Part shown: positions 2,723 to 43,901 of the stretch, piece after piece
How the letters are laid out: each line of letters starts with the position of its first letter
Position numbering within the stretch: the first letter of the stretch is position 1
Origin: an uncultured Chloroflexia bacterium
GTDB lineage: Bacteria; Chloroflexota; Ktedonobacteria; Ktedonobacterales; Ktedonobacteraceae
NCBI GenBank assembly: GCA_963717195.1
Contig: CAVQVR010000021.1
Location: 204,934-268,933 of the forward strand
DNA length: 64,000 nt
Reading direction: 5' to 3'
The notes under the pieces: generated by a model
Told to the model about the DNA's origin: nothing
Databases searched by the model: none
Seen by the model: only the letters and a program-made list of their open reading frames with translations
Position numbers and translations under genes: made by a program

Positions 2723-3777
2723 AATGCCCGTCAATCTGCTCAATGGACGGCTCTTTGCTTCTCGTGTGAGATTGAAAGATTGCGCTGGCAACGCCGGTCT
2801 CGGCGGTCTGGCGAGCGACGCGCAGGGCATTCTTGATTGCTTTTGCGTTAGAGCGGCCATGGGAGACGATAGCAGACCCATTAATACCCAATAACGGGAC
2901 GCCACCGTATTCGGCATAGTCCAGGCGTTTCCCGAATCTTGCGCAGACCAGGGCGCAAGACAGCGGCAGCGAGCTTATTCACTAAAGAACTGGTCATCTC
3001 GGTGCGGATCAGCCCGAGCAGCGTTTCGGCCAGCCCCTCGCTCAGTTTGAGCACCACATTCCCCGTGAAACCATCGCACACGATCACATCAGCTCCACCT
3101 GTAGGGATATCGCGCCCCTCGACGTTGCCAATAAAGTTGAGGCCTAGCGTCGGGGCCGTATTTTTGAGCAACTGATGCGTCTCAATGACGAGCTGGTTTC
3201 CTTTCAATTCTTCTTCACCGTTTGCCAGCAGGCCGACGCGAGGAGATTGCACGTGAAAGATGCGCTCCATATAAATAGATCCCATGAGTGCAAACTGCTG
3301 TAAATATTCGGGTTTGCAGTCTGTATTTGCGCCGATATCAACAACGAGGCAGATACCGTCTCTGGTGGGGAAGATACCGCCGAGAGCAGGACGATCAATG
3401 CCGGGGATGCGCTTCAGAGTGAAAAGCGCAGCAGCCATCATTGCGCCACTATTGCCAGCAGAAACGGCTCCCAAAGCGGCACCATCGCGTACCTGCTGGA
3501 GGGCAATGGTCATTGAGGCGTTCTTTTTGCGGCGCACAGCATTGGCAGGATGCTCATCCATCTCAATCATTTCGTCAGTGTGGATGATAGGCAGATCGAG
3601 TCCACTGGTATCGTGTTTCGCAAGCTCGGCACGAATAGCATCCTCGCGTCCGACGAGGTAGACGCCCATATGATACTCGCGGGCGGCCTGTATGGCCCCT
3701 AGCACAACTTCGCCAGGAGCATTATCACCACCCATGGCATCCAGAGCAACGCGAATAGGAGCATTCTCGGTGCTCAT
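2721..3777 (-). CDS. plsX: Phosphate acyltransferase PlsX, with an apparent single-base frameshift near 2927-2933
   Basis: The N-terminal 281 aa ([31 protein letters not shown]…) are canonical PlsX. The annotated frame ends as …[21 protein letters not shown]. The +1 frame read from there gives the expected PlsX C-terminus [40 protein letters not shown]…IEQIDGH*, ending at 2721. One extra T in the gtttccc run explains the break. Confidence 0.8.
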
Positions 3778-4160
3778 GCACGTTTTCCTTCTGGCTCTCC
3801 GATAGTCTTTCTCACAAGGTCAACCAGTTTGTCGAGATCAAATGGTTTATACACAATGTGAACGACGCCAGCTTCGCGGAACTCTTGCTCTTCGTTCCCC
3901 GCGTTTAAGAAGGCCGTAACGACAATGACTGGTATCTGGCGATCAACGGCCATCGCCATCAACTTTAACTCATCGCGACCATCCAGGTAAGGCATCATCA
4001 GGTCAAGCAGGACAAGGTCTGGTTGATGCTCGCGGATAGCATCGTAGAAGCGCAGGCTCTGCGTCGACATGTACGTTTCATAGCCCTCATCGGCAAGAGC
4101 TTCAGTGAGCAGGTCGGCAATAGTCGGATCATCGTCCATAATCAGTATTTTTTTCGCCAT
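3774..4160 (-). CDS. Single-domain response regulator (CheY-like receiver)
   Basis: 128 aa with ILIMDDDP…DLVLLDLMMPYLDG…K receiver motifs. Its stop overlaps the plsX start (ATGA), which indicates translational coupling. Confidence 0.8.
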   Translation of the reverse strand: MAKKILIMDDDPTIADLLTEALADEGYETYMSTQSLRFYDAIREHQPDLVLLDLMMPYLDGRDELKLMAMAVDRQIPVIVVTAFLNAGNEEQEFREAGVVHIVYKPFDLDKLVDLVRKTIGEPEGKRA

Positions 4161-4441
4161 AAAGCGGTATTCCCCTCATCTCAAAAACAACCAACGGTTT
4201 GTTCACCATTATAACATCCGTATTATAACACCTTGTTGTGAGAGAGTATATGCTATTTTGTTTGGGGCTATCATCCTTTAACGAGCACCCACAAGGGGAT
4301 GCCGCCCCTACTTAAATTGTTAAACGCGTAATAATTATTATGATACGCAACATGCACGCCTCGCAATTTTATTTACAGAGCGACGATACATAGGTTATAC
4401 TACTCACTATTAGATAGTCAACCAGAAGAAACGATAGGCGT

Positions 4442-6349
4442 ATGGTATCTTCATCTCTTTTTTGCCCCACCTGCGGTGCCGCTAATTCTGCGCAAGCGGA
4501 CGAATGCTTTACATGCGGGCAAACAATAGGAGCAACGCTTGCCAACCCTCTCCAAAGAATATTAAGACAACGCTACCTGATTCTGGAACAGATAGGGCAA
4601 GGCGGGTTTGGAGCGGTATACAAGGTGTCTGATTCTCAATTGGGAGATCGCCTGCTGGCAATTAAGGAGATGAGCCAGAACGGGCTGAGCGGGCAAAATA
4701 TACAGGAGGAATTAGAACAGTTTAAGCGTGAAGCAATGCTGCTAGCTGGATTGATGCATCCCAATCTTCCACGCATCTACGATTCTTTTACGGAAGATGG
4801 CCGCTGGTACCTCGTCATGGATTTTATTGATGGGCAGACGCTGGAGGACTATCTTGAACAGGCTGATGAAGGGAAGCTACCGATTGAAGAGGTACTCGAA
4901 ATTGGTATTCAGTTATGTTCGGTACTTGATTATTTGCACACGCGCCAGCCACCGATTATCTTCCGTGATCTCAAGCCAACGAATATTATGCGTACATCTT
5001 CGGGGCAGCTTTACCTGATTGATTTTGGTATCGCGCGCCACTTCAAGCCAGGACAGGCAAAAGATACTATTGCTCTCGGCTCGCCTGGTTACGCAGCTCC
5101 TGAACAATATGGCAAGGCGCAAACAACACCAGCCGCCGACATCTATAGCCTGGGAGCCTTGTTGCACTCGATGTTGACCGGCAGCGATCCTTCCATAACG
5201 CCTTTTTGTTTCGATCCTTTGCACCTGCATGGCATCCAGGCAGCGGAATTGGAAGCTCTGCTGGAACACATGGTTGAGATAAATGTAAGCAAACGTCCCG
5301 TCAGTGCAGCTATTGTGAGAGAACAGCTACAACAGTTGCAGAAGATAGCTACAAATTCAGCACATAGAGCAGCGTTGGATATCCCTGCTGGGGGAAAGTC
5401 CATACCTGCACTGAAGCCACAGCAAACGATCTACCGCAACCATACAGACAGTATTACCAGCCTGGTATGGTCGCCAGATGGAACGAAGATTGTCTCAGGT
5501 GATAAAGATACGAGAGTCCATATATGGAACGCACTGAGCGGAGAGCCTCTGGCACAGATTTATGGATTTAGCGGACAACTACGCTGGCGCAACGCTATAG
5601 CATGGTCACGCGGCGGCATACACATTGCCCTGTTTGGCGAAGGTGATGAGAAGACAGCGTTGCGCTGGGACGCAGCAAGTGGAGAGCGTATTTTTTGCTA
5701 CTATGAGCGACGAAAGAGAGTCGGTGCGGTCGCATGGTCGCCGGAGAGTCAGTACCTGGCATTAGGGAATAATGATAGAATGGTACAGGTTCGAGACATA
5801 AGACGAGGAGAGATTATTTTTACGTACTGTGGTCACCGCGAATCATTACGCCTGAACAGAGTCAATGCGGTTGCGTGGTCGCCCAATGGCCTTTATGTGG
5901 CATCAGGTACCAGGAGTGACGGCGTCCACGTCTGGCAAGTTTCCACAGGCGAAACCATTCAGATTTACATAAGCCATGCGGCTGAATTAACGACGCTGGC
6001 ATGGTCGCCCGATGGCAAATACATTGCATCAGGTGGTGGCGACGATACGGTACAGGTATGGGAAGCGGCAACAAAGAAACGTATTTTCACCTATCATGGT
6101 CATGCAGGCATCGATACTGGTGCCGGAATAAGCGCGATTGCATGGTCGCCCGATGGAACATATATTGCATCAGCCAGAGGTGGAGATGATACTACAGTGC
6201 AGGTATGGACGGCCTTCACCGGCACGAATGCCTTAACATATACAGCACATACGGAGCAGGTCAATGTGCTCACGTGGTCACCCGATGGAACGCGTATTGC
6301 TTCGGGTAGCAATGATAGAACTATCCGTGTGTGGCATATAAACTCTTAA
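4442..6349 (+). CDS. Ser/Thr protein kinase with N-terminal Cys4 zinc ribbon and C-terminal WD40 repeats (paralog 1)
   Basis: Zinc ribbon CPTCGAAN…CFTCGQ. Kinase motifs are present: GQGGFGAVYK, AIKEM, FRDLKPTN catalytic loop, DFGIARHF, GSPGYAAPEQ. About seven WD repeats carry an AWSPDG signature. Confidence 0.9.
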   Translation: MVSSSLFCPTCGAANSAQADECFTCGQTIGATLANPLQRILRQRYLILEQIGQGGFGAVYKVSDSQLGDRLLAIKEMSQNGLSGQNIQEELEQFKREAMLLAGLMHPNLPRIYDSFTEDGRWYLVMDFIDGQTLEDYLEQADEGKLPIEEVLEIGIQLCSVLDYLHTRQPPIIFRDLKPTNIMRTSSGQLYLIDFGIARHFKPGQAKDTIALGSPGYAAPEQYGKAQTTPAADIYSLGALLHSMLTGSDPSITPFCFDPLHLHGIQAAELEALLEHMVEINVSKRPVSAAIVREQLQQLQKIATNSAHRAALDIPAGGKSIPALKPQQTIYRNHTDSITSLVWSPDGTKIVSGDKDTRVHIWNALSGEPLAQIYGFSGQLRWRNAIAWSRGGIHIALFGEGDEKTALRWDAASGERIFCYYERRKRVGAVAWSPESQYLALGNNDRMVQVRDIRRGEIIFTYCGHRESLRLNRVNAVAWSPNGLYVASGTRSDGVHVWQVSTGETIQIYISHAAELTTLAWSPDGKYIASGGGDDTVQVWEAATKKRIFTYHGHAGIDTGAGISAIAWSPDGTYIASARGGDDTTVQVWTAFTGTNALTYTAHTEQVNVLTWSPDGTRIASGSNDRTIRVWHINS

Positions 6350-6466
6350 TACAATTTTAATTGACATTTGATCCTATTGTATATACATTTTCTCTGGTGA
6401 CAGCAAGAGCCAATGGCCTTTCACGGCTCGTTTGAGGATACTGAAACGAGAAGTTTTTAAAAATGC

Positions 6467-6500
6467 TTGACAAGGATGCAGCATCTGTATTAATGTACAT
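6467..6500 (+). promoter_or_regulatory. Putative sigma-70 promoter of kinase paralog 2 (TTGACAAG…N…TTAATGTACAT)
   Basis: It lies about 50 nt upstream of the start. The architecture is nearly identical upstream of paralogs 3 and 4. Confidence 0.45.
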
Positions 6501-6546
6501 CCGTTGCACCAACAAATACAAATAAATCAAACCAGGATGTATAAAT

Positions 6547-8454
6547 TTGCTTTCCTCCATACTTTATTGTCCCCATTGCGGGGCTAAGAATAAGGCACAG
6601 GCTGCAAATTGCTTCGTCTGTCGACGGGCGTTCTATGATATTGGTATTGGTACAGCAGGCCTGGCGGCCATACAACCCCTTCTGAAGCAACGTTACCGCA
6701 TAGTGAGTCTGGCCGGGCGGGGTGGTATGGGTGCCGTCTATAAAGCTACAGATATTGAATTGGGCAACCGACTCGTAGCGGTCAAGGAAATGAGCCAGCG
6801 CGGGTTGAATGGACGAGAAAAAGCAGAGGCGGTCAGAGGCTTCAAACACGAGGCGCTCTTGCTCGCAGGTCTTCAGCATGCCCATTTGCCACGTATTTAT
6901 GATCACTTTTTGGAGAATGGGCACTGGTACCTCGTCATGGATTTCATTGCCGGCGAGACGCTAGAAAACTACCTCGCGCGGATGCCCGGGCGCAGGCTCC
7001 CACTTGAGGAAGTACTCGACTATGGTATTCAGTTATGTACAGTCCTGGAGTATCTGCACACCCGGCAGCCACCCATCATCTTTCGTGATTTAAAGCCAAC
7101 CAACATTATGCGCTCCACCGAGGGACAACTCTACCTGATTGATTTTGGCATTGCGCGTCACTTCAAGCCAGGACAAGAAAAAGACACGGCGGCATTCGGG
7201 TCACCGGGCTATGCTGCGCCGGAACAATATGGTCAGACCCAGACGACCCCTCGCACCGATATCTACAATCTGGGCGCAATCTTACATCAGATGCTCACTG
7301 GAAAAAATCCTGCACAAACGCCATTTTTCTTTGCGTCACTACCACTAGAGTTGGAAGGAACCGGCATACAAGCATTGTTGGCAAATATGCTTGCGTTACA
7401 AATGCAGCAGCGGCTACCCAATGTGATAGTTGTGAAACAGGCATTACAGCAGATTGCCATGAAAGCTCCACGCGGCCACAGCCGGGCGCTCGTGCTCAGA
7501 ATTCAGGCACCCTCGCCGCAAAAAGTACGTACGATGCCTTCCTCTGTAGGAGCACTCATTTCCACCTTCGCAGAACATAGTGATTGGATCTCGAAGGTTG
7601 CATGGTCGCCGGATGGACAACAAGTTGCCTCAGCCAGTTACGATGGAAGCGTCCAGATCTGGAATGCCTTTACCATCAGGCCCGTCACAATATACAAGCA
7701 GCAACGCCTGAAGGTTTTTGGGCAACCGCGCGTCAATGCTGTCGCCTGGTCACCGAGTGGACAGGAGATCGCAATTGCCAGTGATAACAAAAGCGTAGAG
7801 ATCTGGAACGTTACGACTACAAAAAAACTCTTTGCGTTCCGCGAGCACTCTGATAGTGTGCGTTCCGTGGCATGGGCACCGGACGGTCGGAAAATCGCGT
7901 CAGTGAGCGGCTACAAAACGTATGTGTGGAACGCCAGGAACGGAAAAACGATTACCATGCATAGTGCATCCAGAGACGAGATTCAAGATGTAGCATGGTC
8001 GCCCAACAGCAAGTATCTTGCCACCGCCAACAAGCTACAGATTGTGCGTATTTTTGAGCTTTCGACGCAGATGGAATTTTTACAGGGGACATCCTATGGC
8101 AATCATAAAGGTGCCGTACAGGCTGTGGCATGGGCTCCCGATGGTATCCGCATAGCCTCGGCGGCTGATGACAAAACGGTCCAGATCTGGAATGGGTTGA
8201 CTGGCAATCTTCTTCTGACTTACACAGCCCACGAGACAACCATCAAAGCTATTACATGGTCGCCTACTGGGAAGTACATCGCATCAGCAGGTAATGATGG
8301 AACGATACAGATCTGGGATGCGCTCACCGGCAATCATCTCTTTACGTTCCAGAAACATAGTGCTCCCATCCATACCGTAGCCTGGTCGCCGGATGGCAGG
8401 TACATCGCCTCGGGAGGTGCAGACAAGGTCGTTCATATCTGGCAAGCTACCTGA
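6547..8454 (+). CDS. Zinc-ribbon Ser/Thr kinase-WD40 protein (paralog 2)
   Basis: Same architecture as paralog 1: CPHCGAKN…CFVCRR ribbon, FRDLKPTN, DFGIARHF, APE, AWSPDG repeats. TTG start as in the ORF track. Confidence 0.9.
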   Translation: MLSSILYCPHCGAKNKAQAANCFVCRRAFYDIGIGTAGLAAIQPLLKQRYRIVSLAGRGGMGAVYKATDIELGNRLVAVKEMSQRGLNGREKAEAVRGFKHEALLLAGLQHAHLPRIYDHFLENGHWYLVMDFIAGETLENYLARMPGRRLPLEEVLDYGIQLCTVLEYLHTRQPPIIFRDLKPTNIMRSTEGQLYLIDFGIARHFKPGQEKDTAAFGSPGYAAPEQYGQTQTTPRTDIYNLGAILHQMLTGKNPAQTPFFFASLPLELEGTGIQALLANMLALQMQQRLPNVIVVKQALQQIAMKAPRGHSRALVLRIQAPSPQKVRTMPSSVGALISTFAEHSDWISKVAWSPDGQQVASASYDGSVQIWNAFTIRPVTIYKQQRLKVFGQPRVNAVAWSPSGQEIAIASDNKSVEIWNVTTTKKLFAFREHSDSVRSVAWAPDGRKIASVSGYKTYVWNARNGKTITMHSASRDEIQDVAWSPNSKYLATANKLQIVRIFELSTQMEFLQGTSYGNHKGAVQAVAWAPDGIRIASAADDKTVQIWNGLTGNLLLTYTAHETTIKAITWSPTGKYIASAGNDGTIQIWDALTGNHLFTFQKHSAPIHTVAWSPDGRYIASGGADKVVHIWQAT

Positions 8455-9328
8455 TCAATAAGTTAAGAAAGGCCTGAGCAGCTCTAGATAAGTGTATTTT
8501 CTGTGAGTACACAATGTAAATAAAGGTATCATCGTGTCGCCAGACACGTTCAAAGAGAGTGGGTTGTGTCACTCTCTCTTCAAGAAAGAGCAGTTCGACC
8601 TCTTGCGCCTCCAGCTTTTCCACAGCCATCTGAGTATCGGCAATAGAGAGTGTCAATTCAATATTTGGATAGAGCATTTTGTAGCGATCGACGAGATGAG
8701 AGAGCAAGAGTGCGTTAATAAATGTGCTAGACGCGACTGCCAAGTGGCCACGACGCAGATTTCGCAATTCATCCAAAACTGTCTCTACGTCCTCATGAAC
8801 TGGTTGTTTCTGATGCGCTGAGAGCTTCTGCATTTTGCGAAACGCTTCCTGTTCCTCCAAACTCTGTCTTTCCATCAAAAGTCCTTTGGTCCGCTCAATC
8901 GTTTTGCGTGTCTCCAGTTGCTCGGACAGGAGACGTATGCGTTCCTCCATAGCAGACAGCCGCTGATAATGACTCAGCGCCATCTCAACAGCGGGAACGA
9001 CCTCGCTTTCTTGCAAAGGCTTAATAAGATAATTGATAACGCCAGCATCTTTAGCGCGTTGTATGAGCGCCTGATCGGTATAAGCAGTGAGTAATATAAC
9101 GGGGGCAATCTTCTCGTGCACCAGTATCTCAGCAGCGGTGAGGCCATCCATATCTGGCATATGAATGTCCATAATCACAAGGTCAGGGCGTTGTGAGCGG
9201 GCCATAGCAACCACACTCAGCCCATCCATAGCCTCGTCAATCACCACATACCCACGTCGCGTCAATACATCTTTCAGATCCATACGTTGAAGCGGCTCAT
9301 CGTCCGCAATAATAATACGTGCTGCCAT
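8447..9328 (-). CDS. Response regulator with REC + ANTAR RNA-binding domains and an unusual about 100 aa C-terminal LysR substrate-binding-like extension
   Basis: REC: IIIADDEPLQRMDL…DLVIMDIHMPDMDG. ANTAR: ERTKGLLMERQSLEEQEAFRKMQKLS…VETVLDEL, which aligns with the canonical 190 aa REC-ANTAR protein at 34016. The extra tail is HLAVASSTFINALLLSHLVDRYKMLYPNIELTLSIADTQMAVEKLEAQEVELLFLE…. It is convergent with kinase 2 and overlaps it by 8 nt. Confidence 0.75.
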   Translation of the reverse strand: MAARIIIADDEPLQRMDLKDVLTRRGYVVIDEAMDGLSVVAMARSQRPDLVIMDIHMPDMDGLTAAEILVHEKIAPVILLTAYTDQALIQRAKDAGVINYLIKPLQESEVVPAVEMALSHYQRLSAMEERIRLLSEQLETRKTIERTKGLLMERQSLEEQEAFRKMQKLSAHQKQPVHEDVETVLDELRNLRRGHLAVASSTFINALLLSHLVDRYKMLYPNIELTLSIADTQMAVEKLEAQEVELLFLEERVTQPTLFERVWRHDDTFIYIVYSQKIHLSRAAQAFLNLLIR

Positions 9329-9527
9329 CGCTCCCTTTCACAACCCGTTTGAGTGTACTGACACGGGCTCCATAAGCGCTTTTTTCGCTCTCGAAAAGTA
9401 TAGCATACATAGTAGCTAAAATTCGATACGATTAAACGTTTACTTATTCCTGATAAGATTAGATTTGCTATTTCCCCATCTACTGGAATTACGTTGGGCT
9501 GCGGGGAGACTTCTGCAAAAAAGGCAC

Positions 9528-9565
9528 TTGACAAGCGCATAGCAAGTGGACTATTGTACAACATA
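9528..9565 (+). promoter_or_regulatory. Putative promoter of kinase paralog 3 (TTGACAAG…CTATTGTACAAC)
   Basis: Conserved TTGACAA / TGTACA architecture shared with paralogs 2 and 4. Confidence 0.4.
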
Positions 9566-9605
9566 CATCATAAGCATATATATTTATAAGGATATAAGAT
9601 CTATT

Positions 9606-11606
9606 GTGACATCTCCACCTCTTTTCTTCTGCTCCCACTGCGGAGCTGCCAACGACGAGCTGGCAACAAACTGTTTCGCGTGTAATCAATCATTGCATGC
9701 GCCTCTGCCACAACAGCAGACGCAAACGCTCTTGAAGGAACGCTACCATACAATCAACCAGCTTGGTCAGGGAGGCATGGGCGCGGTCTACAAAGCTGAA
9801 GATATCGAACTGGGAAATCGGCTCGTCGCGGTCAAAGAGATGAGCCAGCGCGGGCTAACGGAACAGGAAGCGCTTGAGGCGACCGAAGCCTTCAAACACG
9901 AAGCCATGATGCTTGCGGCTCTGCTTCATCCACACCTGCCACGCATCTACGATCATTTTTCGGGGAACGGGCACTGGTATCTGGTCATGGATTTTATCGA
10001 TGGTCAAACGCTGGAGGACTATCTGGGAAAGCAACCCGGGTATCTCTTGCCCTTACAAGAGGCGCTTGAATATACTATGCAGCTCTGTAGTGTGCTGGAT
10101 TACCTGCACACGCGCCAGCCACCCATTGTCTTTCGCGACCTCAAGCCATCCAACGTCATGCGCACAAACGATGGGCAGCTCTACCTGGTTGATTTTGGCA
10201 TTGCGCGTCACTTCAAGCCGGGACAGGCAAAAGATACCATCGCCTTTGGTTCGCCGGGCTATGCTGCACCGGAGCAATATGGAAAAATGCAGACGACGCC
10301 AGCCGCCGACATCTATAGCCTGGGCGCTCTCTTGCACCAGATGTTAACGGGCAACGATCCATCGGTAACGCCATTCTTTTTTGCGCCTCTACCATCTGAC
10401 ATTGGATCAGTTGCCTTACAAAATCTGCTCAAGCATATGCTCGATATGGATGCACTCAACAGACCCATAAGCGCGGCGGCAGTGAAGCAGCAATTACAAC
10501 GCATCGCCACGCAGGATAATATGCGCCAATTCTCCTCTCCTGGCTCAACCGTGAGTAGCCCTGGTGCATCATCATTGCAGGGATCTCAAGCAAAACCCAT
10601 CTCGTCGTACCAGGTCACTGCGTCTGCATCAACTGGCTCATCCAATTCCAGTAGCAAGCCCACATCAATACAACCGTTGCCGCCTCCTGCACAGCCTCAA
10701 TCTCAGCAGGGGAGACGTGTGTGCACCTATAGAGGGCATATCGACCTGATTACTGCGGTGGCATGGTCACCTGATGGACAATACATTGCTTCTGCAAGCT
10801 ACGATAAGACGGTACAGATCTGGGATGCCAGAACAGGAGGGGCACAACAGATCTATGAAGGGCATGTCAGAAGTTGGCGTTCCAGTCAGTTGTACGCTCT
10901 TGCGTGGTCACCAAATCAGAATCGTATTGCATCGGCAGGAGAGGATAAAGTTATACAACTCTGGAATGCACATCTCCCCAGAAATCCCAGTTATTACAAT
11001 CAGCATAGCGAAAGTGTGCTTGGCGTGGTATGGTCGCCCGGCGGCACACGAATTGCTTCCATCGGTGGCAAAACGTTACATATATGGAATGCAGCCACAT
11101 GTGCGACTATTGCGACTTATAACCATGAGGATATCATCCAATCAGTAGCCTGGTCATCTGACTCAATACATGTGGCTAGTGGTGGCAAAGATGGCAAAAT
11201 CTGTATTTATAAGACAAATAAGGCAAGCTCTGACAATAGTCATGTCACGCACCTTATCCATAATGCAGCCATACAGGCAGTAGCGTGGTCGCCTGATGGA
11301 AAGTTTCTGGCATCTGCGAGCAATGATACGACCGTGCGTATTGTCGATCCAACAACTGGAACGATTAATCTGATCTATGCAGGTCACACACGTCCGGTTA
11401 ACACTGTGGCATGGTCGCCTGATGGGACGCAGCTTGCCTCTGCTGGCGAAGATGAGACGGTGCAGATCTGGGATCTCACTGGCAAAAAGCTGTTTACCTA
11501 TGCAGATCACTATGCTGCCATCTTTACGGTTGCATGGTCGTCCGATGGGAAATACATTGCTTCAGGGGACGCGCATAAGTTGGTACATGTGTGGATGGCC
11601 CGATAG
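9606..11606 (+). CDS. Zinc-ribbon Ser/Thr kinase-WD40 protein (paralog 3) with a Ser/Pro/Gln-rich linker
   Basis: CSHCGAAN…CFACNQ ribbon, kinase motifs, WD repeats. The likely start is GTG 9606 (aagga RBS upstream, matching the …SPPLFFC N-termini of the paralogs). The ORF-track start at 9546 is an AT-rich extension. Confidence 0.85.
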   Translation: MTSPPLFFCSHCGAANDELATNCFACNQSLHAPLPQQQTQTLLKERYHTINQLGQGGMGAVYKAEDIELGNRLVAVKEMSQRGLTEQEALEATEAFKHEAMMLAALLHPHLPRIYDHFSGNGHWYLVMDFIDGQTLEDYLGKQPGYLLPLQEALEYTMQLCSVLDYLHTRQPPIVFRDLKPSNVMRTNDGQLYLVDFGIARHFKPGQAKDTIAFGSPGYAAPEQYGKMQTTPAADIYSLGALLHQMLTGNDPSVTPFFFAPLPSDIGSVALQNLLKHMLDMDALNRPISAAAVKQQLQRIATQDNMRQFSSPGSTVSSPGASSLQGSQAKPISSYQVTASASTGSSNSSSKPTSIQPLPPPAQPQSQQGRRVCTYRGHIDLITAVAWSPDGQYIASASYDKTVQIWDARTGGAQQIYEGHVRSWRSSQLYALAWSPNQNRIASAGEDKVIQLWNAHLPRNPSYYNQHSESVLGVVWSPGGTRIASIGGKTLHIWNAATCATIATYNHEDIIQSVAWSSDSIHVASGGKDGKICIYKTNKASSDNSHVTHLIHNAAIQAVAWSPDGKFLASASNDTTVRIVDPTTGTINLIYAGHTRPVNTVAWSPDGTQLASAGEDETVQIWDLTGKKLFTYADHYAAIFTVAWSSDGKYIASGDAHKLVHVWMAR

Positions 11607-11732
11607 TTTCAACCGCTGTTGCCAGAGTATGATCTATCATTTGGACCATATCTACAGGATTTGCCTCCCGATAAATAACAAGAAGTATACTTTTCAAAAA
11701 GTACCATACTACTCCTTTAAAGGAACAAATAC

Positions 11733-11765
11733 TTGACAACCCGCTCCCATTTGTACTAATGTACA
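11733..11765 (+). promoter_or_regulatory. Putative promoter of kinase paralog 4 (TTGACAAC…CATTTGTACTAATGTACAA)
   Basis: It is nearly identical to the paralog 2 element (CATCTGTATTAATGTACAT). Confidence 0.45.
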
Positions 11766-11808
11766 AAGAATATCACTGGCAAGAACATATGTTTGTATAA
11801 GGGTTGTT

Positions 11809-13806
11809 ATGACGCTCTTTCCAACACAATTTTGTGATACGTGCGGTGCCGCGAACCGCGTACAGGCGCAGTTTTGCCGCGTCTGTGGGCGGTTACTGCA
11901 AGATGATGCCCGCACAATCAATATCAGCTCTACACTGACCGGAACGCTAACGCAGCATATATTGAAGCAACGTTACCTTATTCTCGGCCAGGCGGGCCGT
12001 GGTGGCTTCGGGGCAGTCTACAAAGCATCCGATACCGAACTCGGCAGACTGGTAGCAGTCAAGGAGATGAGCCAGAGCAACCTGGGAGCACAAGAGCTGG
12101 TAAATGCAAATGAGGCATTCCGACACGAGGCAATGCTACTGGCAGGATTGACACACCCCAATCTGCCACGCATCTATGAGCAATTTACCGATACGGGCCG
12201 CTCATATCTCGTTATGGACTTTATTGAGGGTGAGACGCTGGACGAATATCTGGACAGACTGGGGGGTCAGAAGCTGCCGTTTGAAAAAGTGTTTGATATC
12301 GCACTCCAGCTCTGTTCTGTGCTGGACTACTTGCATAATCGTCAGCCCCCCATTATTTTTCGTGATCTCAAGCCAGCCAACGTGATGATTACAGCCAGTG
12401 GACACGTCTACTTAATCGATTTCGGCATCGCGCGTCACTTCAAGCCAGGACAGAGCAAAGATACAACGGCACTCGGTTCATCGGGATATGCTGCGCCCGA
12501 GCAATATGGCAAGTCGCAGACCACACCGCGTGCCGATATCTATAGCCTGGGCGTGACACTACACCAGTTGCTCACAGGAAACGATCCTTCGGTCTCGCCG
12601 TTTCACTTTGCCCCGGTACAACTACCCAATGTGGCCGCGCTAAAGGGGTTGGACACTCTGATTATGAGCATGGTGAGCGTAGATATTGACAAGAGGCCAA
12701 CAAGTATAGCCATCGTCAAGCAAGAATTAGAGCGCATTTCGTTTGAATATAGAATAACGCATCCATTGCAAAATGGAGTGCCGAACTCCTATCAAATCCC
12801 TCGGACAGGAACGATACCAGGGATACCAAACATTCCCCGAACGCCTCGGCGCTCCGCACAATCGAGGGTTATTCCCCAGGCGAACATGTGGTATGTATGT
12901 GTAGGCCATAGTAGCCGTGTGACAGCGATTGCATGGTCACCAGACGGGAAATACCTGGCTTCGGCAAGCTACGACAAGACCGTCCAGCTCTGGGATGCCA
13001 GCAATGGGCAAAATATTCTCACGTACAAAGGACATCGCCAGCATGTTAATGCATTGGCATGGTCGCCTGATAGCAAATATATTGCTTCGGCGAGCGACGA
13101 CGGGACAGTACAGACGTGGGAAACGAAGACGGGGAAAACATGCGTTACCTTTCGTGGTCATCTCGAAGAGGTCAACGCCGTGGCATGGTCACCCGATGGC
13201 TTCTATATCGCCTCCGGAGGAAGTGACAAAACGGTCAAAGTGTGGAAAGCAAAGACCGAAAAGCTTATCTACATGTGCACAGAGCATAGCGACAAGATAC
13301 AGAGCATTGCCTGGTCACCCAATGGCAAATGGGTTGCATCGGCGGGTAAAGATCGGAAAGTACACATCTGGGATCCGACGAAAGAGCCAGCACGGCATTC
13401 ATTTTTCAGTAGCATCCTCTCCTTCACACGCAAAGTAGAAACCCTCAACGAGCACAACGGGCAGATCTTCTCCGTCTCGTGGTCGCCAGATAGTCGGCGT
13501 ATCGCCTCAGCAAGTGGTGATCGGCGTGTGCTGGTTGGAGACATCCAGACGAAAAAAATTCTATTCTCGATGGGTGAGAATAGTACCAGTATAAAAAATG
13601 CCGTAGCCTGGTCGCTCAGAGGTGAACATATCGCTATTGGCGGCAACGATAAGACCGTCCAGCTCTGGAATGTGAACAGCAAGAAATTGATCTTCACCTA
13701 TTCTGGGCATACAGGCTATGTAACAACCATCGCGTGGTCCCCTGATGGTACAAAGGTCGCCTCCGCGAGTAGTGATCGTACAATACAAATATGGCAGGCC
13801 ATGTAG
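11809..13806 (+). CDS. Zinc-ribbon Ser/Thr kinase-WD40 protein (paralog 4)
   Basis: CDTCGAAN…CRVCGR ribbon, FRDLKPAN, DFGIARHF, APE, multiple AWSPDG repeats. Confidence 0.9.
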   Translation: MTLFPTQFCDTCGAANRVQAQFCRVCGRLLQDDARTINISSTLTGTLTQHILKQRYLILGQAGRGGFGAVYKASDTELGRLVAVKEMSQSNLGAQELVNANEAFRHEAMLLAGLTHPNLPRIYEQFTDTGRSYLVMDFIEGETLDEYLDRLGGQKLPFEKVFDIALQLCSVLDYLHNRQPPIIFRDLKPANVMITASGHVYLIDFGIARHFKPGQSKDTTALGSSGYAAPEQYGKSQTTPRADIYSLGVTLHQLLTGNDPSVSPFHFAPVQLPNVAALKGLDTLIMSMVSVDIDKRPTSIAIVKQELERISFEYRITHPLQNGVPNSYQIPRTGTIPGIPNIPRTPRRSAQSRVIPQANMWYVCVGHSSRVTAIAWSPDGKYLASASYDKTVQLWDASNGQNILTYKGHRQHVNALAWSPDSKYIASASDDGTVQTWETKTGKTCVTFRGHLEEVNAVAWSPDGFYIASGGSDKTVKVWKAKTEKLIYMCTEHSDKIQSIAWSPNGKWVASAGKDRKVHIWDPTKEPARHSFFSSILSFTRKVETLNEHNGQIFSVSWSPDSRRIASASGDRRVLVGDIQTKKILFSMGENSTSIKNAVAWSLRGEHIAIGGNDKTVQLWNVNSKKLIFTYSGHTGYVTTIAWSPDGTKVASASSDRTIQIWQAM

Positions 13807-13992
13807 AATAAGGTGGAGCAAGAACAGAAAATTTACAAGGCTCTAGTAAAATTTTCCAATTTCCGTGTGATTAGCGCGTGGAAGGGGTCTCTGCATGTTA
13901 TAATATGATGGTAGGCTAGCACTCTATCATTGTCAGGCACATTATCAGAGATTGCTTGCAACTGAATATCGTCCCGGGGAGGGGCTACTGCT

Positions 13993-16257
13993 ATGGTATA
14001 TTGCGAATCATGTGGCGCAGCCAATGAAACAGTCACCGAAAAATGTTTTGTCTGCCAGCAACCAGTTGTAGATACCGAAGAGCTAGAGATTGTGACTACA
14101 CAATCATTGGCTAACGCGGAGAACGGAAACAGGAACGAAGAGAAGAATACTCCCACGCTTTTACAAGGACGCTATCAGCTAGTGAAAGAGGTGGGAACTG
14201 GCGGTTTCGGAGCAGTCTATAAAGCTATTGATACAAAGTTTGATAATCGAACCGTAGCGATCAAAGAGATTCAACTACAAGGATTAAAGCCAAACGAGAT
14301 CATTGATGCAACAGATACCTTCAATCGCGAAGTAAATATCCTATCGGATCTGCGCCACCCCAACCTGCCCCGCGTTTATGATCACTTCACCTCACCTGAG
14401 CACTGGTACCTGGTGATGGACTTTATCGATGGCCAAACACTGGAAACATACTTGGATTCCAGAAGTGGTCGCCTTCCCCTGGACGAAGTCTTCACGCTCG
14501 GAATACAGATATGCACAGTATTGGACTATCTGCACACACGTCAACCAGCCATTATCTTCCGCGACCTCAAACCAACGAATGTTATGATCACCAGCAACAA
14601 ACAGGTCTACCTGATCGACTTCGGGGCCGCACGCTATTTCAAAGCCGGACGCACAAAAGATACGATAGCCTTTGGCTCGCCGGGCTACGCAGCACCAGAA
14701 CAATATGGGAAAGCACAGACAACAGCACGCTCCGACATCTATAGCCTGGGCGCAACTCTTCACGAAGCACTCACAGGAAAAGATCCTGCCGAAGATCCAT
14801 TTCATTTCTCTTTTGTACGAGCCGCAGGACTGACGATTCCTACTGACTTAGAAGCACTGATCTTGCGCATGGTCGAAATGGATATGAGTAAGCGACCAAC
14901 CAGTGCAGCCGTTGTGAAGGCTGAATTATGGCGTATCTCGACGCAGCACACGCAACGCCTCTATGCACTACCCACCACTCCATATGGAATACCACCGTAT
15001 CGAGCAACATTTGGTGTAGGGCAACCACCGCCAGCAGCATGGTCGAAATCCGCTCCCAGCGTACAGCAGGCACAGATACAACTGGGCTTTACGCCAACGC
15101 CCTTACCACGCAAACGCGGCTTCTCACGCCGCGCCGTTACATCAATGATCATCCTGGGTATAGCAAGCGTGGCGTTTTTAGAAAATGCCAGATCGTTGTT
15201 GGTCAGTCCTCCTTATATGCAAAATGGTATGCAAGGACCAGCGCCAGAGCAAATAATGCCGAGTTATACGTTCAAGCAACAGGTTATATTCCCCTATCAT
15301 CAAAATACCGTCACCTCGCTAGACTGGTCGCCAGACGGATACACTATTGCATCTGGCTCCCTGGACAAGACATTACGCATATGGAATGCGGACTTCAACG
15401 GATTAGAGACCATTCACAGCATGCCAGATGGTGTGCGTACAGTTGGTTGGTCACCTGATGGATACAATATTGCAGCTGCGAGTGGTGGTAAAACGGGAGA
15501 GTTACTGATATGGAAAACTTCGGCAATAGCAGGGGATAAGCCGATACTCACGTTCAGCAAACCAGCATCGGGTGCTATTAATGCCCTTGCCTGGTCTCCA
15601 TCAACTCAACCGAACACATATGTTGCTATAGGAAGCGATGATGGCAATGTGCGCGTGATAGACATTTCAACGTCTGCCACGAACAACGTAGCTGCTACCT
15701 ACAAAGCTCACAAAAAGCCTGTAGTAAGTCTGGCGTGGTCGCCCAATGGAGATTACCTGGCAACTGGAAGTGCAGATACAACTGTTTATATACAACCCAT
15801 AAGTTTCAATAATTCCCCGCCATCTGATTCCACCATCGTTTTCTCTCAGCATACAGGGAGCGTCACGGCTCTCACCTGGACACCTGATCAGAACTACGTC
15901 ATCTCTGGCGGTACCGATATGCAGGTACTGATATGGGACTTAAATGGACAGGTTGCACAATCCTATCCGACAACAGCGCCCGTAACTGCGCTGGCTTTGT
16001 CTTCACAAAACCTGCTCGCTGTCGGAACTGAAGATGGGACCGTGTCGATGTATAATTTGAACAATACGAACGATACGAATGCATCTCCTAACATTTTACC
16101 AGGAAATGGCAAGGCCATACGCTCAATTGCCTGGTCGCCGGATGGCACATTTTTTGTAGCGGGTGGCGATGACAAACAGGCAATCATATGGAGTCCAGTA
16201 GAGGAGAATCCCGCTCCCTGGCAGGGTGGTGATCAACGACGACATTGGGGCGGCTAA
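13993..16257 (+). CDS. Zinc-ribbon Ser/Thr kinase-WD40 protein (paralog 5) with a predicted transmembrane segment between kinase and propeller
   Basis: CESCGAAN…CFVCQQ ribbon, kinase motifs, WD repeats. A unique hydrophobic stretch RKRGFSRRAVTSMIILGIASVAFLEN is preceded by basic residues, which suggests a cytoplasmic kinase with an extracytoplasmic beta-propeller. Confidence 0.85.
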   Translation: MVYCESCGAANETVTEKCFVCQQPVVDTEELEIVTTQSLANAENGNRNEEKNTPTLLQGRYQLVKEVGTGGFGAVYKAIDTKFDNRTVAIKEIQLQGLKPNEIIDATDTFNREVNILSDLRHPNLPRVYDHFTSPEHWYLVMDFIDGQTLETYLDSRSGRLPLDEVFTLGIQICTVLDYLHTRQPAIIFRDLKPTNVMITSNKQVYLIDFGAARYFKAGRTKDTIAFGSPGYAAPEQYGKAQTTARSDIYSLGATLHEALTGKDPAEDPFHFSFVRAAGLTIPTDLEALILRMVEMDMSKRPTSAAVVKAELWRISTQHTQRLYALPTTPYGIPPYRATFGVGQPPPAAWSKSAPSVQQAQIQLGFTPTPLPRKRGFSRRAVTSMIILGIASVAFLENARSLLVSPPYMQNGMQGPAPEQIMPSYTFKQQVIFPYHQNTVTSLDWSPDGYTIASGSLDKTLRIWNADFNGLETIHSMPDGVRTVGWSPDGYNIAAASGGKTGELLIWKTSAIAGDKPILTFSKPASGAINALAWSPSTQPNTYVAIGSDDGNVRVIDISTSATNNVAATYKAHKKPVVSLAWSPNGDYLATGSADTTVYIQPISFNNSPPSDSTIVFSQHTGSVTALTWTPDQNYVISGGTDMQVLIWDLNGQVAQSYPTTAPVTALALSSQNLLAVGTEDGTVSMYNLNNTNDTNASPNILPGNGKAIRSIAWSPDGTFFVAGGDDKQAIIWSPVEENPAPWQGGDQRRHWGG

Positions 16258-34015: not shown

Positions 34016-34588
34016 TTACATTGCGTCCGTTAAGAGAATGGCCTCTGCAACCTCACGCATAGATTTGCGATTATTCATGCTGGCCTTCTGAATCTTGCGG
34101 AACGCTTCTTGCTCGCTAAGCCCCTGCTTTTCCATCAAGAGTCCTTTGGCACGCTCGACAATCTTACGTGCTTCCAGTTGTTCGTTTAATGTACGAGCCT
34201 TCTCTTCCATAGCACGAAACTCGTTATAACGCGCCAGTGCTACTTCTATCGCCGGAGTAACCTCGCTCTCACGCAACGGCTTCACGATGTAGTTCACCAC
34301 ACCGGCTTCCTTAGCACGTTCAACGAGTGGCTGGTCACCGAAGGCGGTGAGAAGCAGTACAGGAGCGATCTTTTCCTGTGTCAGCGTCTCAGCGGCTGCG
34401 ATTCCATCCATATCCGGCATACGGATATCCATAATCACCAGTTCTGGCCGCAACTTGCGGGCCAGGTTGACAGCGCTTACTCCATCACCTGCTTCACCGA
34501 CCACAAGATAGCCTTGTTTTGTCAGCACATCTTTCAGATCCATGCGCTGAATTGCTTCGTCATCTGCAATAATAATACGTGTTGGCAT
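34016..34588 (-). CDS. REC + ANTAR response regulator (AmiR/NasT-type antiterminator)
   Basis: IIIADDEAIQRMDL…LVIMDIRMPDMDG… receiver. ANTAR: ERAKGLLMEKQGLSEQEAFRKIQKASMNNRKSMREVAEAIL. Confidence 0.88.
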   Translation of the reverse strand: MPTRIIIADDEAIQRMDLKDVLTKQGYLVVGEAGDGVSAVNLARKLRPELVIMDIRMPDMDGIAAAETLTQEKIAPVLLLTAFGDQPLVERAKEAGVVNYIVKPLRESEVTPAIEVALARYNEFRAMEEKARTLNEQLEARKIVERAKGLLMEKQGLSEQEAFRKIQKASMNNRKSMREVAEAILLTDAM

Positions 34589-43493: not shown

Positions 43494-43901
43494 TCGGACT
43501 TCTGCCTTCGGAATAAATGGTTACTCGCTTCTTGTTACAGTCAGTGGCAATGAAGGCGCCTTCTCCCAACTATAACCTATTTTCGCCCCTCCATGTACCA
43601 TTTTATGGGCTATGAGGCTATGAACATTGGCAATTTTGGGAAAAACGCTGACGAAACTGTATATTTGCTTGACAGTCGTTCGTTGCACTTTATAATAGAG
43701 AATAATATTTGTTTTGCGTATGTATGCACCCGGCTTCTATGTGCTTTCTTATAAAAGTGGTATGCTATATTTATACGCTCTACTTTTGAGAAAGCGGAGC
43801 AGGCTAGAGCGAACACCTCATTATAGGCGAGAATGTCATCCCGATGGATGAAGTGCAGTTCGTTCGTACGCGGTGTAATGAGGAGTAACCAGGTATATGT
43901 A

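Follow-up and report, generated by a model that had tools for sequence, protein, structure and literature searches.

The five tandem genes described here are best read as an old, vertically inherited family of PkwA-type Hanks serine/threonine kinases, a reading that is given a probability of about 0.75 jointly with the workings proposed below. They lie in a 64,000-nucleotide stretch of DNA (the window) belonging to a Ktedonobacteraceae (Chloroflexota) chromosome. An earlier note on this DNA had described five consecutive same-strand genes sharing one tripartite architecture, and the ORF list, Pfam domains, and motifs agree on this in all five, with each gene encoding a zinc ribbon, a Ser/Thr kinase, and a WD40 propeller in the following layout:

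4442-6349, + strand: paralog 1, 635 aa (ORF call, Pfam); zinc ribbon 4463-4516, kinase 4568-5338, linker 5339-5437, WD40 propeller 5438-6346
6547-8454, + strand: paralog 2, 635 aa, TTG start (ORF call, Pfam); zinc ribbon 6568-6621, kinase 6688-7461, linker 7462-7578, propeller 7579-8451
9606-11606, + strand: paralog 3, 666 aa, GTG start (ORF call, Pfam); zinc ribbon 9630-9683, kinase 9738-10514, Ser/Pro/Gln-rich linker 10515-10742, propeller 10743-11603
11809-13806, + strand: paralog 4, 665 aa (ORF call, Pfam); zinc ribbon 11833-11886, kinase 11968-12747, linker 12748-12912, propeller 12913-13803
13993-16257, + strand: paralog 5, 754 aa (ORF call, Pfam, AlphaFold); zinc ribbon 14002-14055, kinase 14167-14943, long linker 14944-15261, seven-blade acidic propeller 15262-16254

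An alternative, longer ORF of paralog 3 begins at 9546, and the start was placed at 9606 because the ortholog N-terminus agrees with it and a promoter-like block at 9526-9560 is conserved.

Domain architecture and relation to PkwA

In every paralog, Pfam detects the Pkinase domain (E 3e-39 to 6e-47) and the WD40 domain (E 1e-51 to 6e-75), and the GxGGxG motif, VAIK lysine, alphaC glutamate, FRDLKPxN, DFG, and APE are retained in each. The kinases are of the RD-type Hanks class with intact catalytic motifs and are predicted to be active, in which case they would be switched on through autophosphorylation of the activation loop. The best NCBIfam match for these kinases, PknB_PASTA_kin, falls under its cut-off, and none of the NCBIfam equivalog models reaches its own. 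The Cys4 ribbon pattern CxxC-x12-CxxC is also found in all five proteins; its Pfam matches (DZR, Zn_ribbon) are sub-threshold, never reaching the gathering score, and its AlphaFold model has a pLDDT of about 81. The nearest solved structures by sequence are the Nostoc WD40 protein 2ymu, PkwA (5yzv), and the kinases PknB, PknA, and StkP, and the modelled seven-blade propeller reaches TM 0.84-0.92 against WDR5 and designed WD40 propellers. The propeller may serve each kinase as a platform for docking or ligand binding and so decide its input or substrate choice.

PkwA of Thermomonospora curvata is a bacterial Ser/Thr kinase-WD40 fusion (Janda et al., 1996, cited in PMC5587647), with a structure available for its WD40 domain (5YZV; PMC6113231), and a survey of bacterial kinase-WD40 fusions also lists Chloroflexus (PMC1262709). 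The array resembles PkwA in having a Hanks kinase ahead of seven WD40 repeats, in a direct sequence match to the PkwA propeller, and in a filamentous, developmentally complex host with several copies per genome. It differs in the N-terminal Cys4 ribbon of all five proteins (PkwA being compared over kinase and WD40 only), in the five tandem copies at one conserved site, and in the probable hydrophobic anchor between kinase and propeller of one copy. Judged by sequence matches, the architecture is already known and very common, with more than 5,800 homologs at E<1e-20, named [quoted passage not shown] in the database (Ktedonobacteraceae), and with the four cysteines, kinase, and WD40 domain retained in nearly all relatives across 80 genome loci.

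Orthology and chromosomal site

The paralogs are old and stably inherited, and do not form a fast-evolving cassette. Their positional orthologs in related metagenomic Ktedonobacteraceae (loci L001, L002, L003, L029, and L081) are 71-86% identical, with values of 80% for paralog 1, 74-75% for paralog 2, 78.5% for paralog 3 (in L001), 85-86% for paralog 4, and 71-84% for paralog 5, and the order of the one-to-one orthologs is unchanged in L001 and L002. The five are not recent identical duplicates, being 35-48% identical to one another with diverged linkers, and they represent at least three old subfamilies (paralog 1; paralogs 2 and 3; paralog 4; paralog 5) standing side by side. The array fills a conserved site between REC-plsX and an acyl-CoA dehydrogenase gene (the ACAD-hydrolase flank), at which one, two, four, or five kinases occur across the Ktedonobacterales; for example, the cultured Ktedonosporobacter rubrisoli carries a pair of kinases there, one cytoplasmic and one anchored. 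Genes have apparently been gained or lost at the site on occasion, as with paralog 3, which is absent from L002.

Spacers and putative promoters

The spacers ahead of paralogs 1-5 measure 281, 197, 277, 202, and 186 bp with a GC content of 0.35-0.44 (vs. 0.49-0.52 in coding sequence), in keeping with the earlier description of AT-rich spacers of about 200 bp, each with its own promoter. The comparison with L001 and L002 brings out promoter-like blocks that are kept while the rest of the spacers has diverged:

4368-4402, + strand: block of paralog 1, TTTACA-18-TATACT, 10/12 in the consensus scan; conserved in L001 and L002, flanks not
6465-6499, + strand: block of paralog 2, CTTGACAA-N12-TGTATTAATGTACA; conserved with L001 and L002
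9526-9560, + strand: block of paralog 3, TTGACA-18-TATTGT, with motif copy TGGACTATTGTACA (consensus scan, conservation)
11731-11765, + strand: block of paralog 4, palindrome TTGTAC-TAAT-GTACAA (conservation, motif search)
13892-13905, + strand: block of paralog 5, TGnTATAAT-type; conserved in L001 and L002

The motif TGTACTAATGTACA, with two mismatches at most, has three matches in the window vs. 0.28 expected, one of them being the block of paralog 2. Each kinase gene would be transcribed from a separate promoter of its own. The promoter calls are based on similarity to a consensus and on conservation, in a phylum with few well-characterised promoters.

Neighbouring receiver genes

Receiver domains are encoded ahead of the array, within it, and further along the window:

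3774-4160, - strand: REC1, stand-alone receiver (Pfam Response_reg, E 2.8e-21), divergent from paralog 1
8447-9328, - strand: REC-ANTAR-LysR_substrate-like regulator (Pfam), between paralogs 2 and 3
34016-34588: second REC-ANTAR gene in the window, 190 aa, of the common Ktedonobacteraceae type

The stand-alone receiver previously placed before paralog 1 is present there, but it is divergent on the minus strand and shares 4 bp with the start of plsX, and therefore belongs to a REC-plsX operon. The embedded regulator, previously described as inserted convergently, is indeed convergent with paralog 2 (8 bp stop overlap) but divergent from paralog 3, and a LysR-like piece of it had been missed. 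Its REC (E 2e-26) and ANTAR (E 7e-14) domains lie above the Pfam gathering cut-offs, a likeness to AmiR/NasT/PdtaR-type regulators, and over residues 1-185 it shares 63% identity with the REC-ANTAR proteins of 190 aa that are common in Ktedonobacteraceae. It differs from AmiR/NasT/PdtaR in about 105 additional C-terminal residues resembling part of a LysR effector-binding domain (LysR_substrate E 5e-10, profile positions 3-78 of 209), which are shared by a family of 288-298 aa proteins with 49-85% identity to it, as well as in having no target RNA hairpins nearby and in its truncation to a REC-only gene of 156-158 aa in the closest relatives (L001 and L002).

The kinases and receivers could conceivably form one module, in which REC1 and/or the REC-ANTAR protein would be phosphorylated or docked and would tie the kinases to plsX lipid synthesis or RNA-level control, although this is considered unlikely. 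In the window and in L001-L004, L006, L012-L014, L020, and L027, as well as in L030, L035, L040, L063, L071, and L077, a ZnR-kinase-WD40 gene has REC1 immediately upstream in divergent orientation. REC1 is extremely constrained (98% identity in L001 and L002, dN/dS about 0.005), and in seven other loci kinase pairs have a REC-ANTAR gene about 4 kb away. In other bacteria, response regulators are phosphorylated by Hanks kinases, as in the pairs Stk1-CovR, PknB-WalR, and PknH-DosR. However, since REC1 overlaps plsX on the strand opposite to the kinases, their neighbourhood may simply reflect a conserved gene order, and the loss of ANTAR from the embedded gene in the closest relatives, together with the failure of Pfam to detect the ANTAR part in several members of the 288-298 aa family, also argues against such a module. 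Similarly, ANTAR-type RNA hairpins and terminators were not found in the array's spacers, and dual-hexaloop ANTAR targets occur at chance level (three vs. 3.1 expected), none of them in the spacers. The connection of the REC and ANTAR genes to the kinases is one of gene position only.

The hydrophobic segment of paralog 5

15124-15180, + strand: SRR-AVTSMIILGIASVAFL, aa 378-396 of paralog 5 (to 397 with the following E), probable membrane anchor

Paralog 5 very probably differs from the other paralogs in cellular location. Paralogs 1-4 would be cytoplasmic, with no hydrophobic segment found in paralog 1, and paralog 5 would be of the receptor type, a single membrane anchor separating the kinase inside the cell from the acidic propeller outside. 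It is probably held in the membrane by a segment resembling an internal twin-arginine (Tat) export signal. This segment has an n-region of the twin-arginine type, with the residues RKRGF ahead of it and E-N-A-R behind it. Of 127 representatives from the kinase clade of paralog 5, 95 have a hydrophobic segment at the same position, much stronger in many of them, and its presence goes strongly with a WD40 domain downstream; the clade segments are Gly/Ala-rich and weakly hydrophobic with S-R-R-x-F/V-L ahead, and their top HMM matches are Tat signals (Rieske Tat-signal, TAT_signal).

A reading in which all five proteins stay in the cytoplasm, with this stretch serving as a buried or amphipathic part of the linker, is improbable, although the stretch has just 16 hydrophobic residues, its Kyte-Doolittle value of 1.67 over 19 residues (1.96 over 17) barely exceeds the classical KD19 cut-off of 1.6, and the Tat/signal HMMs do not match the segment of paralog 5 itself. 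Such a reading is countered by the clade-wide occurrence, by the conservation of the segment in L002, L001, L081, and P0121 while the surrounding linker diverges, and by the basic cluster on its kinase side with an acidic, Cys-free propeller beyond. The transmembrane helix proposed earlier is upheld as a conserved segment, which in the AlphaFold model lies outside the propeller fold and is not a buried propeller strand, but not as a confident helix (pLDDT below 50, 26-38).

As a predicted receptor-type Hanks kinase, paralog 5 would share the layout of PknB, Stk1, and StkP (kinase-TM-PASTA) and of M. tuberculosis PknD (kinase-TM-NHL beta-propeller), in which a single hydrophobic segment joins the kinase to a sensor outside the cytoplasm that is made of repeats or a propeller. 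Among solved structures, kinase domains of this group give the best matches. Paralog 5 differs from the PknB and PknD types in its sensor, a WD40 propeller without PASTA or NHL repeats, and in its weakly hydrophobic anchor with S-R-R ahead. Internal Tat-dependent transmembrane segments have been described in the actinobacterial Rieske protein Sco2149 and further families, with no mention of kinases or propellers (Tooke et al., 2017, PMC5449189). The likeness lies in a twin-arginine motif right before a weakly hydrophobic segment, positive charge after it, and a downstream globular domain that has to cross the membrane. Those proteins begin with Sec-inserted helices and export a domain that carries a cofactor, whereas paralog 5 begins with a soluble ribbon and kinase of 380 aa and its cargo would be a cofactor-less propeller. 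Tat-dependent export of the folded propeller is an interesting lead at the level of prediction.

Divergence and selection

The linkers, 33, 39, 76, 55, and 119 aa long in paralogs 1-5, are essentially unalignable among the paralogs and are the most divergent part, as the earlier note had stated, and the Ser/Pro/Gln-rich linker that it mentioned is that of paralog 3. Nei-Gojobori dN/dS against the orthologs is 0.05-0.09 for the kinases, 0.04-0.16 for the propellers, and 0.1-0.5 for the linkers, values that point to purifying selection and are rough because dS is saturated (about 1-2). In neighbour-joining trees of kinases and propellers, built without bootstrap, each paralog groups with the identical orthologs in both, and this agreement gives no sign of shuffling. 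The blades within one protein are 31-39% identical to one another, and the propellers are therefore not of the hyper-repetitive or hypervariable type. The earlier proposal of a rapidly diversifying sensor cassette, with shuffled kinase and propeller halves and fast-evolving linkers and propellers that follow changing inputs in the manner of conflict or hypervariable repeat systems, could draw on the unalignable linkers, on the greater divergence of the propellers (29-44% pairwise identity among paralogs vs. 56-68% for the kinases), on the varying copy number at the site, and on the highest dN, 0.27, in the paralog 5 propeller, but it is largely refuted and very improbable in view of the ortholog identities, unchanged gene order, domain dN/dS, congruent trees, blade identities, and PADLOC matches to the array that are of the generic kinase-domain kind only. 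Within the stably inherited family, paralog 4 falls in the neighbour-joining tree in one clade with the kinase that lies next to REC1 in most Ktedonobacteraceae.

Architecture and family of the five kinases

Five consecutive genes on the forward strand (P1 at 4442-6349, P2 at 6547-8454, P3 at 9606-11606, P4 at 11809-13806, and P5 at 13993-16257) each encode in one polypeptide a putative zinc ribbon, a kinase domain on the N-terminal side and about seven WD repeats on the C-terminal side, which is the fusion type of PkwA, the kinase-WD40 protein of Thermomonospora curvata. The tripartite design, proposed earlier from the sequence, is borne out in all five by Pfam scores and motifs, with the kinase domain scoring 135-161 bits (E 3e-39 to 6e-47; Pfam gathering cut-off 31.7) and the WD40 repeats 172-245 bits (E 1e-51 to 6e-75; gathering cut-off 27). 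The Gly loop, the VAIK Lys, the alphaC Glu, the FRDLKPxN catalytic loop, DFG, and APE are kept in 5/5 paralogs, which are read as RD-type Hanks kinases with predicted activity. A CxxC-x12-CxxC motif stands at the start of all five proteins and of nearly all relatives; the best curated models for this putative ribbon (DZR, Zn_Ribbon_1, and DUF7577) reach 17-25 bits, below their cut-offs of 25-28, and in the AlphaFold model of P5 the N-terminal part is a small beta ribbon. This model (mean pLDDT 80.4) comprises a kinase at 56-325, a disordered stretch at 327-415 (pLDDT below 50), and a propeller at 424-738 with 28 strands forming seven blades, mostly above pLDDT 85, which Foldseek aligns to WDR5 and designed WD40 propellers with TM scores of 0.84-0.92. 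The propellers of P1-P4 carry, from sequence alone, 6-7 WSPDG motifs each and have a pI of 6.5-9.4, against a pI of 4.8 in the Cys-free propeller of P5. The solved structures closest in sequence are those of a Nostoc WD40 protein, the PkwA propeller, and the kinases PknB, PknA, and StkP.

The kinase-WD40 architecture is documented (PMC1262709; PMC6113231), and publications on the fusion go back to PkwA in 1996, with Chloroflexus listed in 2005 (PMC1262709; PMC5587647; PMC6113231). In the literature collection searched, no relevant paper on Ktedonobacteria kinases was found. A search with P1 returned >5,800 proteins at E<1e-20, with relatives named as Ktedonobacteraceae and Chloroflexota and several annotated as [quoted passage not shown]. 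In a scan of one genome per species, 80 loci were found in Ktedonobacteraceae, Thermogemmatispora, Dictyobacter, and Ktedonosporobacter, often several per genome and frequently as tandem pairs and triples, and nearly all of their proteins contain the kinase, the propeller, and the four cysteines. The array itself is ordinary, and kinase-WD40 fusions are hugely expanded in Ktedonobacteria. No NCBIfam equivalog model matched the paralogs at its cut-off. An anti-phage defence system was considered and dropped because the PADLOC matches (PD-T4-6 and mad6) are generic and confined to the kinase domain, with no partner genes nearby.

Age and retention of the array

The earlier note saw a rapidly diversifying cassette in the array, and the comparison with other genomes speaks against this. 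Two metagenomic contigs contain the same locus: in L001, REC1 (the stand-alone receiver gene) and plsX precede five kinases in unchanged order, the second and third of which are separated by a REC gene, and L002 has four kinases and lacks the P3 ortholog, with a spacer at the gap (14496-14832) that combines the upstream part of the P3 spacer with the downstream part of the P4 spacer and so resembles a fusion of the two spacers flanking the missing gene. Copy number inside the array has thus changed among relatives, and L001 also has an extra 213-aa ORF without a Pfam match between the P3 and P4 orthologs (13193-13834). The window paralogs are 71-86% identical to their positional orthologs and only 35-48% identical to anything else, and among themselves they share 56-68% identity in the kinase and 29-44% in the propeller. 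Nei-Gojobori dN/dS against the L001 and L002 orthologs is 0.05-0.09 for the kinase, 0.04-0.16 for the propeller, and 0.1-0.5 for the linker, figures that are rough because dS is saturated.

Shuffling of kinase and propeller halves was rejected on the basis of separate neighbour-joining trees, which are congruent and place each paralog with the same orthologs. In these trees, P2 and P3 are sisters, P4 belongs with the kinase that adjoins REC1 in most other Ktedonobacteraceae, and P5 belongs with anchored kinases, among them the second one of Ktedonosporobacter rubrisoli. A hypervariable propeller was likewise rejected, since the blades within one protein are only 31-39% identical to each other, unlike those of propellers that evolve fast and are hyper-repetitive. 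Throughout the order the site keeps its flanking genes: a glycosyltransferase gene, plsX, and REC1 lie to one side, genes for an acyl-CoA dehydrogenase and an alpha/beta hydrolase lie to the other, and the number of kinases between them is 1, 2, 4, or 5. From the positional orthology, the low dN/dS, the congruent trees, the non-repetitive blades, and the conserved flanks, it is therefore concluded that the array is an old paralog family that has stayed at one site while copies were occasionally gained or lost; its main value is that of a clean and datable case of paralogs retained at a single, fixed place on the chromosome. In a different group of Ktedonobacteraceae (loci L041, L047, L052, L054, L055, and L058), the kinase beside the acyl-CoA dehydrogenase gene is a protein of 318-319 aa with zinc ribbon and kinase only, without anchor or propeller (e.g., 12185-13144 in L052).

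Linkers, spacers, and putative promoters

The linkers between kinase and propeller, 33, 39, 76, 55, and 119 aa long in P1 to P5, cannot be aligned between paralogs and are indeed the divergent part of the proteins, the Ser/Pro/Gln-rich one belonging to P3. The spacers, described earlier as AT-rich and about 200 bp long, measure 186-281 bp with a GC content of 0.35-0.44, compared with 0.49-0.52 in the genes. When each spacer is aligned with its orthologous spacers, one sharply conserved block per gene stands out, and a motif search of the 64-kb window locates a core within three of these blocks.

Conserved blocks (spacer alignment) and copies of the core TGTACTAATGTACA (motif search)
4368-4402, + strand, conserved block ahead of P1
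6465-6499, + strand, conserved block ahead of P2
6486-6499, + strand, copy of TGTACTAATGTACA
9526-9560, + strand, conserved block ahead of P3
9547-9560, + strand, copy of TGTACTAATGTACA
11731-11765, + strand, conserved block ahead of P4
11752-11765, + strand, copy of TGTACTAATGTACA
13892-13905, + strand, conserved block ahead of P5

The blocks ahead of P2, P3, and P4 have CTTGACAA-N12-TGTAnTAATGTACA in common, and the core, allowing at most two mismatches, occurs three times in 64 kb (0.28 expected), only at these blocks. It may be an operator common to the three genes, and the copy before P4, a perfect palindrome (TTGTAC-TAAT-GTACAA), might act as an operator overlapping the -10 region. No terminator-like hairpins were found in the spacers, nor any Rfam match at a permissive threshold. 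The claim that each gene has its own promoter therefore holds for the conserved block in front of each; given these blocks and the terminator-free spacers, separate promoters for the five genes are plausible as a prediction. As the domains, linkers, and spacers measure out in this way, the earlier description of the array is correct with three additions, namely the strand of REC1, a C-terminal piece of the embedded regulator, and the start of P3 at 9606, which is backed by an ortholog and by the conserved promoter-like block.

A conserved hydrophobic segment in P5

The transmembrane helix proposed for P5 corresponds to the segment RKRGF-SRR-AVTSMIILGIASVAFL-ENAR, in which SRR and the hydrophobic run occupy residues 378-396. 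Its Kyte-Doolittle score (1.67 over 19 residues, 1.96 over 17) lies above the classical cut-off, and in four orthologs it is nearly identical, in contrast to the diverging remainder of the linker; on the other side, AlphaFold gives no confident helix there. In the model the segment lies outside the propeller, about 27 residues before its first strand. P5 is accordingly predicted to be located differently from P1-P4, as a membrane-anchored receptor-type kinase, with a probability of roughly 0.75-0.8. Four cytoplasmic copies and one anchored copy, as predicted, under separate putative promoters could be compared experimentally, and for bacterial kinase-WD40 proteins, none of which is known to have an assigned function, such a testable contrast in topology at a single locus offers a practical place to start.

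The large kinase group containing P5 (hereafter the clade) includes dozens of 50%-identity clusters, mostly Ktedonobacterales-like, and was sampled by searching P5 residues 1-430 against 1.8 billion cluster representatives and taking the best 150 matches. Among these, 127 have a recognisable kinase motif, and a hydrophobic segment follows the kinase in 95/127. Arg-Arg lies just upstream of the segment in 69/95, and the pattern [S/T/G]-R-R-x-hydrophobic-hydrophobic is found in 57/95. The arginine pair is present in 49/54 representatives with at least three WD motifs after the segment versus 20/41 without WD repeats (odds ratio 10.3, p 7e-6), a comparison among 95 phylogenetically related representatives in which the class without WD repeats is blurred by gene fragments. 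Segments with Arg-Arg are also less hydrophobic (median 1.94 versus 2.64, p 4e-6). In the clade logo, basic-basic-x-x-S-R-R-x-(F/V/I/L)-(L/V/I)-x-G precedes a stretch of about 17 residues rich in Gly, Ala, and Leu, with S or T at -1 in 77%, F/V/I/L at +3 in 80%, and L/V/I at +4 in 86%. Among the clade representatives P0358-P0505, segments without upstream Arg-Arg are mostly strongly hydrophobic, Sec-type anchors, and anchors followed by WD40 repeats are nearly always S-R-R with a Gly/Ala-rich run.

A possible Tat-like reading of the putative anchor

P5 reads F-S-R-R-A-V-T followed by a G/A/S/T-rich h-region, which fits an S/T-R-R-x-F-L-K-like Tat motif. When the 49 clade segments with both Arg-Arg and WD repeats were scanned alone, TIGR01409 matched 17/49 (best E 1.5e-5) and PF10518 (TAT_signal) 9/49; these were the top models in both libraries, followed by the Tat signals of Rieske proteins and formate dehydrogenase. 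The Tat and signal HMMs gave no match to P5's own segment, nor the Tat models to that of its nearest representative. The arginine pair before the anchor also fits the plain positive-inside rule, which the P5 segment obeys; the Tat reading is supported by the model matches of the clade segments and by the joint occurrence of Arg-Arg with lower hydrophobicity and downstream WD repeats.

The twin-arginine motif of P5 comes only after the ribbon and the kinase, at residue 378, and not at the N-terminus as in ordinary Tat signals, of which none was found among the ORFs of the window. Actinobacterial Rieske proteins and further families are known to have Tat-dependent transmembrane segments in internal positions, and those of the Rieske type, which like the clade segments are weakly hydrophobic, preceded by a twin arginine, and followed by a positive charge, are the only precedent for such a position (PMC5449189). 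Kinases and propellers are unmentioned in that work (PMC5449189), and the literature collection searched held no relevant paper that links Tat with Hanks kinases. Tat-dependent export of the P5 propeller is an attractive hypothesis, judged less likely than not. Under it, the WD40 propeller of P5 and its clade relatives would fold in the cytoplasm and then leave it by the Tat pathway, with the twin-arginine segment acting as an uncleaved signal-anchor inside the protein, behind some 380 residues of soluble ribbon and kinase. If this is true, P5 would be a receptor kinase that Tat assembles, and Tat would have a substrate whose large N-terminal domain stays in the cytoplasm and whose cargo is a propeller without a cofactor; Tat dependence would explain how a fast-folding propeller can serve as the outside sensor of a bacterial kinase and would widen the set of known internal Tat signals. 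The Tat-like anchor before WD40 propellers is the one lead here that could be new.

Receiver genes beside the kinases

Both receiver genes reported earlier are present. REC1 (3774-4160, - strand) is encoded on the strand opposite to the kinases and overlaps the start of plsX; it has, as read from its sequence, all canonical receiver residues, is 98% identical in close relatives with a dN/dS of about 0.005, and in many genomes lies next to, and divergent from, a ribbon-kinase-WD40 gene. Since REC1 is co-operonic with plsX, this link to the kinases may be conserved gene order. The embedded regulator between P2 and P3 (8447-9328, - strand) has a REC domain of 92.6 bits (cut-off 30.2), an ANTAR domain of 51.8 bits (cut-off 27.3), and an additional C-terminus of about 105 residues that matches positions 3-78 of the 209 of the LysR substrate-binding profile and is read as the first part of that domain. 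This C-terminus is common to a small family of 288-298 aa with 49-85% identity, in several members of which the ANTAR domain is undetectable, and truncated REC-only versions of 156-165 aa also occur, including those in L001 and L002. The database proteins P0239-P0246 are Ktedonobacteraceae response regulators with REC, a degenerating ANTAR, and a LysR effector-binding-like piece. A canonical 190-aa REC-ANTAR protein (PdtaR/NasT-like) is encoded at 34016-34588 (- strand), and the embedded regulator is apparently a paralog that has diverged from it.

ANTAR antitermination inside the array was dropped because a custom scan of the 64 kb for dual hexaloop hairpins found 3 against 3.1 expected, with 0 in the spacers, which also have neither terminators nor Rfam matches. 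Stk1-CovR and similar pairs are a precedent for kinase-receiver modules, and by this analogy the adjacent kinases and receivers of this locus may form a functional module, a reading based on their position.

Other features of the window

The plsX gene (2760-3777, - strand) is split by a frameshift, with the junction near 2935-2939 and residues 1-281 and 280-339 in different frames, relative to an intact 351-aa ortholog in L002; it is also split in L001. The split reflects either an assembly indel or a real pseudogene, and it is a warning of possible indel errors in the assembly. Between the glycosyltransferase gene and plsX, an intergenic, near-perfect 33-nt inverted repeat (1877-1960, + strand) forms a long hairpin (dG -76 kcal/mol, z -11) that has no second copy in the window and in Rfam matches only miRNA-precursor models. 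Just downstream of the plsX remnant, at 2622-2717, lie three direct copies of a 28-nt unit, GTGCGGGCTTATAAATCGCGCCCGTACA, one arm of which is complementary to part of the hairpin at 1921-1937. Two tandem full-length RelA/SpoT homologs (43833-46328 and 46589-49036, + strand) contain HD, synthetase, TGS, and ACT domains, and the HD_4 match begins at profile position 1 in the first homolog and at position 11 in the second.
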